A stretch of 64,000 nt of DNA from a virus. Taxonomy: Duplodnaviria > Caudoviricetes. Under the pieces are notes generated by a model that saw only the letters and a list, made by a program, of their open reading frames with translations, did no database searches and was not told the origin of the DNA. Shown here piece by piece: positions 4,217 to 63,634 of this stretch; positions within the stretch are counted from its first letter, which is position 1, and every line of letters begins with the position of its first letter. The stretch is taken from IMG/VR virus record IMGVR_UViG_3300032233_001498, positions 24,400 through 88,399 of that record. One strand, 5' to 3'. Made by a program: the position numbers and the translations under genes.

Positions 4217-4228
4217 TGAAAATAGTGG

Positions 4229-4258
4229 TTGCTTTTCATATTAGAAAGCCTATATAAT
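4229..4258 (+). promoter_or_regulatory. Sigma70-type promoter for the tRNA-like RNA
   Basis: TTGCTT (4229-4234), 18-bp spacer, TATAAT (4253-4258), 9 nt before the RNA 5' end. Confidence 0.7.
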
Positions 4259-9660: not shown

Positions 9661-10025
9661 TGCCAAAGTTTGATGAAACCCTAAATGAAAACATTCAACT
9701 TGGGCATGTCCGGGCTTCTCAAACTGCCACAACCGGCGGCCGCAAATTTGATGGTGGCAAACTAGAATATGGTTTGTTACCACCAGCGGCACTAAAGGCA
9801 ACTGTGGAAATTCTTACCTTTGGTGCTCAGAAGTATGAACGTGACAATTGGAAAAATGTACCTGATTCTAAACGCAGGTATTTTGATGCAATGCAACGTC
9901 ACCTGTGGGCATGGAAAGAGGGTGAAATCAATGACCTTGAAACTGGCAAACATCACTTAGCACATGCTATGTGTTGCCTCATGTTTCTATATGAACATGA
10001 TACAATCTATTCACGTGACGAATAA
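9660..10025 (+). CDS. dATP/dGTP diphosphohydrolase-like (DUF5664) protein
   Basis: GRKFDGGK...LLP...FGAQKYERDNWK...YFDAMQRH...HHLAHAMCCLMFL. Confidence 0.75.
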   Translation: MPKFDETLNENIQLGHVRASQTATTGGRKFDGGKLEYGLLPPAALKATVEILTFGAQKYERDNWKNVPDSKRRYFDAMQRHLWAWKEGEINDLETGKHHLAHAMCCLMFLYEHDTIYSRDE

Positions 10026-13463: not shown

Positions 13464-13634
13464 ATGAGAGTATTCAAATTGAAGAACCGTTTTACGGGAG
13501 ATATTGTTCTCTGTAATGATATGAATAACATTACTGAATCTAATGGTATGAAATTCGTTCGAGTGTATAAACAGGAAAATCCTAACAGAACCTTCTTAGT
13601 TAACCTCGAAGCATTTACAATTTTGGATAAATAA
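13464..13634 (+). CDS. Hypothetical 56-aa protein (MRVFKLKNRFTG...)
   Basis: Translated by hand; below the ORF-track cutoff; fills the gap after regA. Confidence 0.55.
   Translation: MRVFKLKNRFTGDIVLCNDMNNITESNGMKFVRVYKQENPNRTFLVNLEAFTILDK
13627..13633 (+). promoter_or_regulatory. T4 late-type promoter (ATAAATA)
   Basis: Matches the T4 late TATAAATA core, immediately before a structured leader. Confidence 0.5.
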
Positions 13635-13639
13635 TTCAT

Positions 13640-13805
13640 CTCGGGATGGGATCGAGGTGGAGGCAACCTCGCTAAAAACCTTCACGAACACCTACCTTAG
13701 GTTCCGTTGGCCGCTACGGCATAAGGCGTCCGTGTAATTACACCCTTGACACGAAAGTTCAAGCCAGTATAAGGTAAGCTGGGCTGATGCGCCTAATGGG
13801 CATCT
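13640..13805 (+). ncRNA. Structured GC-rich RNA leader or ncRNA upstream of Hsp20
   Basis: At least five stems including CGAGGT/ACCTCG, a GAAA-capped CTTGA/TCAAG stem and a TACCTTA/TAAGGTA long-range pairing. Confidence 0.6.
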
Positions 13806-13837
13806 ATTTCGATAACTCGCTTAATAAGGAGACTTTA

Positions 13838-14281
13838 ATGACGTTAATTCGTTCACCTTTTGGAACTTTGCTTCCATCTACAGTTGGTTTTGACCGTGTG
13901 TTCAATGTATTTGATAACATGGTTACAGAAAAATCAACATACCCTCACCACAATATTGTAAAAAAAGAAGACAACAAGTATATTGTTGAACTCGCTGTTT
14001 CTGGTTTCACCGATGCCGATATTGATATCGAAATTGTTGACAGCACTTTACATATTCGTGGTGCCAAAGAAGATAATGTAGAAGTAACATATCTACATCG
14101 TGGCATTGCTACTCGGTCTTTTCACAAAACTGTTCGCCTAGCCGAAACTGTTGAAGTGACTGGTGCTGACCTTGAAAATGGTATTCTCAAAGTCTATCTT
14201 GAAAACAAGGTAGAAGAAAAGAAATCTGTCAAGGTACCTATCGGTAAAATTGCCGGTAAAAAACAGTTACTCGTAGAGTAA
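13838..14281 (+). CDS. Small heat-shock protein Hsp20 (IbpA-like)
   Basis: TVGFDR, YPHHNIVK, LAVSGF, YLHRGIATRSF, LENGIL; start after AAGGAG. Confidence 0.93.
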   Translation: MTLIRSPFGTLLPSTVGFDRVFNVFDNMVTEKSTYPHHNIVKKEDNKYIVELAVSGFTDADIDIEIVDSTLHIRGAKEDNVEVTYLHRGIATRSFHKTVRLAETVEVTGADLENGILKVYLENKVEEKKSVKVPIGKIAGKKQLLVE

Positions 14282-50971: not shown

Positions 50972-51127
50972 ATGACTGTCTTAGTACATAATTGTGAAAA
51001 CTGCGATAATCAGTTTAAAATAACATACGATAGAGATGTATGTGATTGTGACCCGATACATTGTCCATTTTGTGGAGAGTATCTATTAGTTGATGAATCA
51101 GACTGTGGCGATGACGAAACAATCTGA
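50972..51127 (+). CDS. Zinc-ribbon protein, 51 aa
   Basis: Translated by hand: CENC...CPFCG; AGGAGG RBS. Confidence 0.7.
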   Translation: MTVLVHNCENCDNQFKITYDRDVCDCDPIHCPFCGEYLLVDESDCGDDETI

Positions 51128-51527
51128 TTGGTCTTATAACGGTCAACCATTTAAAGAAGAAGATGTTGGCAATTCTTATGGATTTGTCTATGAGATTGTC
51201 AACCTCACCACCAACCGCCGTTACATTGGTAAGAAATTCTTTACCAAAGCAGGCACACGCCAAATCAAGGGTAAAAAGAAAAAGGTTCGCCTATCTTCAG
51301 GATGGGAGAACTATTGGTCGTCCTCAGATGAATTGAAAGCGGACGTCAAAGCACTTGGTGATGATAACTTTACACGAACCATTCTATACTTGTGCAAATC
51401 AAGGTCTGAATGTTCATACAGAGAAACAAAGGAGATTTTCATTAGGGATTCGTTACTTACTGATGATTACTACAACAAATGGGTATCTTGTAAGATTCAC
51501 AAGGCTCACGTAATCAACAAATTATGA
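51111..51527 (+). CDS. GIY-YIG nuclease, T4 endonuclease II (denA)-like
   Basis: GFVYEI.N....RRYIGKK...W.NYWSS. Confidence 0.75.
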   Translation: MTKQSDWSYNGQPFKEEDVGNSYGFVYEIVNLTTNRRYIGKKFFTKAGTRQIKGKKKKVRLSSGWENYWSSSDELKADVKALGDDNFTRTILYLCKSRSECSYRETKEIFIRDSLLTDDYYNKWVSCKIHKAHVINKL

Positions 51528-51565
51528 GATATCAACACGATACGGTTAAACCAAAGAGGAAACCT

Positions 51566-52318
51566 ATGGCTCGCAAATCATCTGCCAATACCGATGTGGA
51601 AGTCAAAGCAACCGCATACAAAAGCACAACCAATCACCTCAAACTGAGGCTCGATGACCTTAAAACATTCCAACCATTGACTGATAATCAAAAGAAATTC
51701 TTTGATGCATATAAACAAGGTGATTACTTTGTAGCACTACATGGTGTTGCAGGTACAGGTAAAACCTTTTGTGCATTGTATAAAGCAATTGAAGAGGTCA
51801 TGGACAAATCTAACCCATTCACCAAGATTATTGTTGTACGTTCTGCGGTACAATCACGTGAGATTGGTCATTTACCTGGTGATGTGAATGAGAAGATGGA
51901 AATTTATCAACAACCTTACCGACAAATCTGCGAGACTTTGTTTGGTCGCCGTGATGCATGGGATAGATTAGAAGAACAACACCACATAGAATTCATTTCA
52001 ACATCATTCATTCGTGGTATGTCCTTTGATGATGCAATCATTATTGTAGATGAGATGCAGAACATGACCTATGAAGAAATTGATACAGTTATGACCCGTG
52101 TTGGTTATCGTTCAAAGATTATCTGGTGTGGTGATTACCGCCAAACAGACTTGAACAAGAAAAGAAATGATGTGTCGGGCATTCTTAAATTCTTTGATAT
52201 TGCCATGCATATGAAGGCATTTACCAAAATTGAGTTTACTGCTGATGATATCGTGCGTTCTTCACTTGTTAAGGATTATATTCTTGCCAAGATGAGATAT
52301 GAAGATGCATTGGATTAA
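51566..52318 (+). CDS. phoH: PhoH-family ATPase
   Basis: GVAGTGKT, GHLPG, FIRG, DEMQN, GDYRQTD, DIVRS. Confidence 0.93.
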   Translation: MARKSSANTDVEVKATAYKSTTNHLKLRLDDLKTFQPLTDNQKKFFDAYKQGDYFVALHGVAGTGKTFCALYKAIEEVMDKSNPFTKIIVVRSAVQSREIGHLPGDVNEKMEIYQQPYRQICETLFGRRDAWDRLEEQHHIEFISTSFIRGMSFDDAIIIVDEMQNMTYEEIDTVMTRVGYRSKIIWCGDYRQTDLNKKRNDVSGILKFFDIAMHMKAFTKIEFTADDIVRSSLVKDYILAKMRYEDALD

Positions 52319-52367
52319 TTTCATCAGGTGAAATAGATGTGGCATACTAGTATAAACACTTAGATTT

Positions 52368-52382
52368 TGTTGCATCGCAACA
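52368..52382. promoter_or_regulatory. Palindrome TGTTGC-ATC-GCAACA (PhaR-box-like) abutting a -10 element
   Basis: Perfect 6-bp inverted repeat; TATAAT at 52385-52390. Confidence 0.5.
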
Positions 52383-52448
52383 TATATAATAGGACAGGTG
52401 CTCAAAGTGAGGCCTGTTCTATTAATTTAATCGTCTAAGGAGATTACC

Positions 52449-52691
52449 ATGTCTAAGATTGACTCATTGGTTTATACTAACCTGTTCATTGATGCCGTAC
52501 AGGATGCAAAGAACAAATTCATCGAAACTTTCGTGTTTGATGATAAGATTGCCGCACCACTAAAAGAATTCGTTGAAGCACAACGCACATTCACAAAACA
52601 AATTAACCGTTCAGCCACAGAAGTTGCCGATTATAGTGTTATTGCAGCAAAGACTGCATTTGAAAAGGTTAAAACTGCAAAGGCAGCATAA
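52449..52691 (+). CDS. Phasin-like amphipathic helical protein
   Basis: AAGGAG RBS; Ala-rich amphipathic helices; upstream TGC-N3-GCA box. Confidence 0.45.
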   Translation: MSKIDSLVYTNLFIDAVQDAKNKFIETFVFDDKIAAPLKEFVEAQRTFTKQINRSATEVADYSVIAAKTAFEKVKTAKAA

Positions 52692-52840
52692 TGTCTGAAC
52701 AGAAAACCTTTTGGGAATGGGTCAAACGAACCTTTACACCTGATTATAGAGTGGAAATTGCAGGATATTTGGCAGAAGCTCGTGATTATGTGGACTTAAA
52801 ACAAAAGATGGACATTCTTCAACGCAGAGGTATTTTGTAA
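52691..52840 (+). CDS. DUF3563-like small protein, 49 aa
   Basis: Translated by hand: F.PDYR.EI..YLAEA.DY.DL..KM..LQRRG; TAATG coupling. Confidence 0.6.
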   Translation: MSEQKTFWEWVKRTFTPDYRVEIAGYLAEARDYVDLKQKMDILQRRGIL

Positions 52841-52871: not shown

Positions 52872-53129
52872 ATGAATAAAATTCCTCAGTTTGAGATAAA
52901 ATCATTGTTGATAAAGGACTTGATGATAAATCTAAAGTCCTTTCATCCTGTGGTCCATGAGGGGTGGCTTATTAAATTTTCCACCCATCGTGACCTTAAT
53001 ATTTTACTCACCTTTGTATCCATATACACCTCACAGACGGTGGTTCGGTATTTTACTAGTGAAGAAGAAGCCGTTATCTTTATTAACTATATAATGAACA
53101 AAGATGCAAGACTGATTCATAAATTATAA
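52872..53129 (+). CDS. Hypothetical protein
   Basis: ORF ending at a terminator. Confidence 0.55.
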   Translation: MNKIPQFEIKSLLIKDLMINLKSFHPVVHEGWLIKFSTHRDLNILLTFVSIYTSQTVVRYFTSEEEAVIFINYIMNKDARLIHKL

Positions 53130-53152
53130 CCCTGCCTAGTGCAGGGTTTTTT
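53128..53152 (+). terminator. Intrinsic terminator
   Basis: AACCCTGC/GCAGGGTT stem plus T run. Confidence 0.8.
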
Positions 53153-53226
53153 GTTTTCGGCAATAGTGTGCAACGCCTATTGACCACGACCTTCAATTGA
53201 GTTATACTGTCAACAAGGAGAACATT

Positions 53227-63576: not shown

Positions 63577-63605
63577 AAATAACTTAAATAATTACTTAAA
63601 ACCAC

Positions 63606-63634
63606 TTGACAAATAAAAAAATTGGATATATAAT
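63606..63634 (+). promoter_or_regulatory. Consensus sigma70 promoter
   Basis: TTGACA-N17-TATAAT. Confidence 0.85.

Follow-up and report, generated by a model that had tools for sequence, protein, structure and literature searches.

Can the promoter of a lytic-type phage be controlled by PhaR, the repressor of bacterial phasin genes, and what do the small genes behind such a promoter encode? These questions are raised by a short locus in an uncultured, freshwater, lytic-type phage with a T4-like gene set. The DNA analysed, called the window here, is a stretch of 64,000 nucleotides (24400-88399 in an IMG/VR virus record of 88.4 kb whose completeness is put at about 51%) with a GC content of 38%. 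Genes for PhoH, a SegE-like GIY-YIG endonuclease and a ligase lie close to the cassette. The phoH gene (51524-52318, + strand; Pfam PhoH E 2e-46) lies outside the operon and serves as context only, but its 3' end is found upstream of the box in related loci too, making phoH a conserved neighbour of the cassette. The gene for the SegE-like GIY-YIG homing endonuclease (51090-51527; Pfam E 2e-34) is immediately 5' of phoH.

Downstream of phoH, a 17-bp palindrome predicted to be a PhaR/PhbF-type operator, TTGTTGCATCGCAACAT (52367-52383), sits in the -35/-10 spacer of a predicted promoter whose -10 hexamer, TATAAT within TATATAAT, is at 52385-52390 on the + strand. A conserved leader hairpin identified by folding and covariation (52391-52420, + strand) and the Shine-Dalgarno sequence AAGGAG (52437-52442, + strand), which is inside a 16-nt block kept across relatives, precede three genes that are all on the + strand. 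ORF80 (52449-52691) encodes an amphipathic 80-aa protein with two helices, from a large family seen only in phages, ORF49 (52691-52840) a 49-aa diverged micro-protein of the DUF3563 family and ORF85 (52872-53129), the third cassette gene, an 85-aa alpha-beta-alpha protein. An intrinsic terminator with an 8-bp stem, five G-C pairs and a T-run (53128-53156, + strand) ends the operon. ORF80 and ORF49 overlap by one base (TAATG), and ORF49 is translationally coupled to ORF80 through this overlap. The initial annotation had described ORF80 followed by a coupled ORF49, which stood, but it lacked ORF85 and the terminator; with these two features after ORF49 the operon comprises three genes and not two. 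Judged from sequence, we consider it likely that the region is a three-gene phage operon between phoH and the terminator, read from a sigma70-type promoter with a single host-type PhaR operator in its spacer, and that it is subject to PHB-dependent derepression via the PhaR of the host.

The palindrome had been described as lying directly upstream of TATAAT, and this is where it was found. A perfect 15-bp palindrome, TGTTGC-ATC-GCAACA, occupies 52368-52382 and TATAAT starts two bases later. Taken as the 17-bp box, the element ends at 52383, and a single base separates it from the -10, which begins at 52385. The box therefore overlaps the predicted core promoter, which is a repressor position, and PhaR sites beside the -35, the -10 or the transcription start are repressing in R. 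eutropha (PMC12849132) and S. meliloti (PMC12542648). The predicted -35 is weak (TAGATT, with an 18-nt spacer), and because of this poor -35 the cassette promoter was not listed by a consensus promoter scan. Two other sigma70-type promoters of the window have this same -10 sequence, TATATAAT, at 63627 and 4251. These two promoters span 63600-63634 and 4225-4258, and one of them has a perfect TTGACA with a 17-nt spacer. The late-type motif ATAAATA occurs six times on the + strand of the window and not once on the - strand. A reading of the cassette -10 as a T4 late promoter was considered and rejected, as TATAAATA is not present there and the hexamer fits the sigma70-type promoters of the window. 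Further upstream, a perfect 10-bp palindrome, ATACTAGTAT, is found at window 52345-52354 within the block GGCAWWCTAGT, which is conserved in related phages 15-30 nt upstream of the PhaR-type box. This second palindrome may be another protein-binding site.

The leader hairpin folds with -18.8 kcal/mol (z -2.3), and 5 of its 13 pairs show compensatory changes among eight relatives, with an invariant inner part and a covarying outer stem. In several relatives the hairpin is followed by a T-run. A transcription start placed about 7 nt past the -10, a position predicted from the promoter, would land in the 5' arm of the hairpin. The element is thus probably both the terminator of phoH and the 5'-terminal stem of the operon mRNA: the full stem would terminate phoH transcripts and the operon mRNA would start with the invariant inner stem-loop only.

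The identity of the box was assessed against published PhaR and PhbF sites and against a motif derived independently. The phage site is an exact match, on both strands, to TG-N-TGC-N3-GCAA (TGNTGCNNNGCAA), the DNase-footprinted PhbF motif of Herbaspirillum seropedicae (PMC3206438), and it is the sole intergenic match to TGNTGCNNNGCAA in the window. It agrees at 16 of 17 positions with YTKNTGCRNYGCANMAR, the PhaR palindrome deduced for R. eutropha, for which the authors tolerate up to three mismatches (PMC12849132); the one mismatch is the last base. For the independent motif we used the 250 nt upstream of each of 30 true Phasin_2 genes from sampled Burkholderiales genomes. TGC-N3-GCA boxes were present upstream of 28 of these 30 genes, amounting to 51 boxes in 7.6 kb, roughly 12 times as dense as in the local background, and usually arranged in twos about 56 bp apart. 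Their consensus is TTGTTGCA-N-TGCAACAA, and the phage site equals this consensus. When a matrix built from the 51 boxes was run over the 88.4-kb record, the phage site scored 21.9 bits, the highest score of the record, with the runner-up at 16.4. Only 1.5% of first-order Markov shuffles attained 21.9 bits anywhere in 88 kb, and a second-order Markov null predicts about 0.09 sites of at least 20 bits per genome. Searched as a bare 15-mer with up to three mismatches, the palindrome gave five matches against 2.84 expected and is unremarkable by itself; it stands above chance because of the exact match to the footprinted motif, the top matrix score and the conservation in diverged relatives described below. 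By all of these sequence tests the palindrome is a PhaR-type operator, as the initial annotation had proposed.

Five other exact TGNTGCNNNGCAA matches occur in the window, at 9884, 24838, 32601, 55055 and 56051, and all are within ORFs; they give seven strand-hits against 0.58 expected from dinucleotide shuffles. Further PhaR boxes in the phage were considered as candidates and dropped, given that these other matches lie inside ORFs and that matrix counts are near the second-order Markov null.

A PHB_acc_N domain, the DNA-binding domain of PhaR, was not found in the phage record, nor in two relatives that are 100% and 95% complete, so any PhaR acting at the box must be that of the host. PhaR is encoded in 107 of 151 sampled Burkholderiales genomes. 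The proposal of a Burkholderiales-type host fared only partly well. The flanks of the box fit the consensus of this order and DUF3563 is present there, but the TGC-N3-GCA core is common to alphaproteobacterial PhaR as well (PMC12542648), and for this reason the sequence makes a Burkholderiales-type host plausible only.

The first gene behind the box had been called an amphipathic, phasin-like protein. Amphipathicity was borne out, as the mean hydrophobic moment of ORF80 is 0.34 compared to 0.22 +/- 0.04 for shuffles (a value reached by 1% of them) and 0.32 for real phasins. The ORF80 model consists of two helices with a pLDDT of 74. The gene has 34 close metagenome relatives, a family profile search returned 166 clusters at 50% identity with members that are only viral or metagenomic so far, and a second family search returned 635 proteins. 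Likeness to phasins is physical and contextual: ORF80 is small, all-helical and amphipathic, and its promoter carries a PhaR-type box. It differs in being half the length of a phasin and in having no sequence or profile similarity above control.

Phasin-likeness by homology did not hold up. No Pfam match was found for ORF80 and 32 close relatives, and searches of ORF80 and its relatives against Pfam, PHROGs and NCBIfam gave nothing above threshold. Phasin_2 (PF09361) was the commonest sub-threshold Pfam match, in 10 of 102 family members, the best reaching 22.6 bits against a cut-off of 24.9; TIGR01841 matched 7 of the 102, also below threshold. The Phasin_2 matches were in inconsistent register, some covering one half of the phasin profile and some the other. 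In a language-model atlas the closest named clusters were Phasin_2 (0.83) and PHB_acc (0.81), values that are leads only. Comparison by hhalign of the ORF80 family with 30 true phasins gave probabilities of 1-6.5% and scores of 15-20, compared to 0.4-0.6% and scores of 14-15 for a reversed control, and alignments to full-length, N-terminal and reversed phasins showed no signal exceeding the control. A PDB sequence search with the family profile recovered a designed helical bundle only, and Foldseek on the model gave nothing informative for a helical hairpin. Neither ORF80 nor the true phasin PhaP2 had a tblastn match in 50,697 GenBank phage records, and a scan of genomes from 185,579 species of bacteria and archaea found no close ORF80 relative.

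A distant third group of ORF80 relatives (L041-L080, e.g. L041 2870-3745) has a different context. Here translational coupling (-4 or +1 nt) links the ORF80-like gene to an HSP20 gene, and the ORF80-like gene is preceded by a conserved, hairpin-rich leader of about 130 nt, and none of the 34 loci has a PhaR-type box. Rfam contains no family matching this leader or the leader hairpin of the cassette. In the region 13627-14281 the window has an Hsp20 gene of its own (13787-14281), with a late-type ATAAATA and a structured leader upstream. Unlike the HSP20-linked relatives, it has no adjoining ORF80 paralogue.

These observations bear on the possibility that ORF80 coats PHB granules as a genuine phasin whose sequence has diverged very far. 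Its two long amphipathic helices, a hydrophobic moment like that of real phasins, the recurrent weak Phasin_2 and TIGR01841 matches, the atlas neighbours and the location under a PhaR-type box, like phasin genes, are all in its favour. Against this, every match is sub-threshold and falls on different halves of the profile, the hhalign probabilities equal those of reversed sequences, none of the best 120 of the 635 family members carries a precomputed Pfam domain, one ORF80 clade is coupled to HSP20 with no box, and close relatives are lacking in the bacterial and archaeal genomes searched. We regard a diverged phasin as unlikely, and the sequence comparisons suggest that the weak phasin signals of ORF80 reflect common composition and not demonstrable kinship.

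The second gene, ORF49, proved to be real and recognisable by family, both of which had been proposed. It is 80-98% identical in four metagenome clusters, and orthologues of 61 aa occupy the same position in related phage loci. ORF49 itself has no Pfam match, but it aligns readily with the 61-aa orthologues over 16 invariant columns, and two of the orthologues exceed the Pfam DUF3563 cut-off of 26.9 bits (L039 at 34.9 and L004 at 29.0; L001 and L002 reach 19 and 16.7). The phage ORF49 family matched 19 bacterial DUF3563 sequences by hhalign with 97.9% probability (E 5e-13, 46 columns), and the 52-aa first gene of a second group of related phage loci matched bacterial DUF3563 with 92% probability (E 6e-7). 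By these profile comparisons ORF49 is a diverged DUF3563 (PF12086) member. DUF3563 proteins are about 47-60 residues long, and the 49 aa of ORF49 and the 46-69 aa of its relatives are of the same length class; the phage and bacterial proteins further share an N-terminal hydrophobic/aromatic segment and the core YLA...D..[DE][LV]E.R. They differ in that the window copy falls below the Pfam threshold. A literature search found no paper mentioning DUF3563, and a DUF3563-like protein had no tblastn match among the 50,697 GenBank phage records.

The third protein, ORF85, is a member of a conserved family that is limited to phages and carries the motif NGW(I/W)IKFS. Its model is alpha-beta-alpha with a pLDDT of 84. 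In fold searches the top Foldseek hit was the anti-CRISPR AcrF1 (E 0.03, TM 0.40) and VIA reached a Z of 5.5 at most; neither is at a meaningful level.

Bacterial DUF3563 genes offer a parallel to the phage cassette, as phage and bacterial genes are both found behind PhaR-type boxes. In the sampled Burkholderiales genomes, a box of at least 14 bits was present within 300 nt upstream in 15 of 19 DUF3563 loci, and these upstream regions held 24 boxes in 5.7 kb compared to 6 in the remaining 53 kb of these loci. PhaR is encoded by every one of the 21 DUF3563-positive genomes, compared to 107 of 151 overall (hypergeometric p 4e-4). These genome tallies include one unpublished genome, G027, and leaving it out gives 20 of 20 compared to 106 of 150 (p 5e-4); loci of G027 were excluded from all alignments and box counts. 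Phasin, ORF80-like and ORF85-like genes were not found within 1.5 kb of bacterial DUF3563 genes, whereas the phage copies share an operon with ORF80-like and ORF85-like genes. On this distribution of boxes and of PhaR, bacterial DUF3563 genes are predicted PhaR-regulon genes. Since they stand behind the same boxes and occur only in PhaR-encoding genomes, the phage cassette is probably a copy or derivative of a member of the host PhaR regulon.

The same loci also point to another candidate binder. In 9 of the 19 (L096, L102-L105, L107, L110, L115 and L117) a divergent LysR-type regulator gene shares the box-bearing intergenic region, often with two boxes about 100 bp apart, so another protein could bind the boxes there. 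The phage palindrome might then be the operator of a regulator other than PhaR, either a LysR-type protein of this divergent kind or an unrecognised phage protein, and the operon would respond to some signal that is not PHB. A T-N11-A arrangement, as typically seen at LysR sites, is present in the box, and the spacing of often about 100 bp at DUF3563 loci departs from the roughly 56 bp at phasin genes. However, seven box-bearing DUF3563 loci have no LysR gene within 1.5 kb and one LysR-linked locus has no box. The phage genome has one strong site, unlike what a multi-target phage-encoded regulator would give. The same motif precedes phasin genes, where PhaR and PhbF have been footprinted (PMC3206438, PMC12849132). 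Weighing these points, we think control by a different regulator quite improbable and retain PhaR as the predicted binder.

Conservation of the box was followed in related phages. ORF80 relatives are encoded at 157 IMG/VR loci, of which 80 were fetched, and box counts were made on the 33 loci of two nearer groups, each with at least 400 nt of upstream DNA. A box of at least 17 bits lies at the cassette promoter in 22 of these 33 loci, and a score of at least 17 bits was reached elsewhere in none of them. The other 11 loci (L014, L019, L032, L033, L038 and six more) have, in place of the canonical box at this promoter, a palindrome that is longer by one base, TTGCAGCTGC(A/G)C; the ORF80 homologue follows about 320 nt or 75 nt downstream of it. 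This variant, with its longer spacer, may fail to bind PhaR. The two groups differ in gene order, which is box, ORF80-like, DUF3563-like and ORF85-like in the first and box, DUF3563-like, a 34-codon ORF, ORF80-like and ORF85-like in the second. The box is at the start of the operon in both groups despite the different first gene, and it has been kept at the same promoter although the flanking sequence of the relatives has diverged. Across 16 aligned promoters the TGC and GCA half-sites were invariant while the central bases and the flanks varied. In 11 of the 16, the window included, the box abuts a -10-like element, and in the other five it is 9-12 bp further upstream; it therefore overlaps the core promoter in all 16 and is not a fixed -35 element.

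That the palindrome belongs to the promoter itself (as a -35-like TTGCAT/TTGCAA) or came in with a captured host gene and is now inert, in either case devoid of repressor function, is accordingly very improbable: in five relatives the left half-box is 17-18 nt upstream of TATAAT and could be a -35, and the bacterial-type gene in the cassette makes a captured promoter plausible, but the box abuts the -10 in the window and ten other aligned loci and cannot be a -35 there, two invariant half-sites with a drifting spacer and flanks are what a dimer binding site under selection would show, and the box has kept its place at the operon start through a change of gene order.

Association with a PhaR-type box is not a general property of these protein families. 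Genes for DUF3563-like micro-proteins were found on 91 IMG/VR contigs (L149-L228), and among 67 distinct loci a canonical box was present within 600 nt upstream of the phage gene in 10-11 and was missing from 56. Other short sequences recur upstream of the phage DUF3563-like genes that have no box. With 56 of 67 DUF3563-like loci and all 34 HSP20-linked loci lacking the box, the products are not generally dependent on PhaR control.

For the cassette of the window, the proposed mechanism follows the model for phaP in R. eutropha (PMC12849132) and S. meliloti (PMC12542648), in which repression by PhaR is relieved by PHB. When a host has no growing PHB granules and no free granule surface, its PhaR would occupy the box and block RNA polymerase. 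When the host synthesizes PHB, PhaR would be drawn onto the granules and the operon would be turned on. The phage, having no PhaR of its own, would rely on that of the host. PhaR binding and PHB-dependent derepression are suggested by the match to the operator, its position and its conservation. With a PhaR-type site on the promoter, the tiny proteins are probably made only in hosts that store carbon. The regulatory context and the physical chemistry of ORF80 further suggest that the three products may have their site of action at the granule or in the metabolism of the carbon store, and the position of the cassette next to phoH fits a nutrient-stress module.

Compared to the PhaR/PhbF/AniA-phaP circuit of R. 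eutropha (PMC12849132), H. seropedicae (PMC3206438) and S. meliloti (PMC12542648), the phage locus has the same invariant TGC and GCA with the same flanks, an operator that sits on the core promoter and, downstream of it, genes for small helical proteins or micro-proteins. It differs in that the promoter is carried by a lytic-type phage lacking phaR, that one box is present where two are usual and that the controlled genes are not recognisable phasins, depolymerases or synthases. Neither phage phasins nor phage genes under PhaR control were the subject of any paper found in a literature search. Sites for host nutrient regulators are found on phage auxiliary genes in cyanophages, with PhoB boxes before pstS and phoA, and NtcA sites. 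As in these phages, a borrowed host factor that reports nutrient status would time the expression of accessory genes, and the cassette here is beside phoH; the difference is that the sensor would report stored carbon, by way of the PHB granule surface, and not phosphate or nitrogen.

A broader reading can be offered tentatively, as a possibility that we hold to be less probable than the operon and its operator. A freshwater T4-like clade would have joined the PhaR regulon of its hosts and would produce granule-directed micro-proteins (a DUF3563 member, ORF80 and ORF85) only in PHB-storing cells, remodelling or tapping the carbon store, and DUF3563 would be an unrecognised PhaR-regulated PHB component in Burkholderiales. 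If a phage promoter is indeed wired to a sensor of stored carbon, this would add a third nutrient axis to the host phosphate and nitrogen regulators that phages are known to borrow. Host PHB status would then shape infection in lakes, and the DUF3563 family would have its first functional lead.
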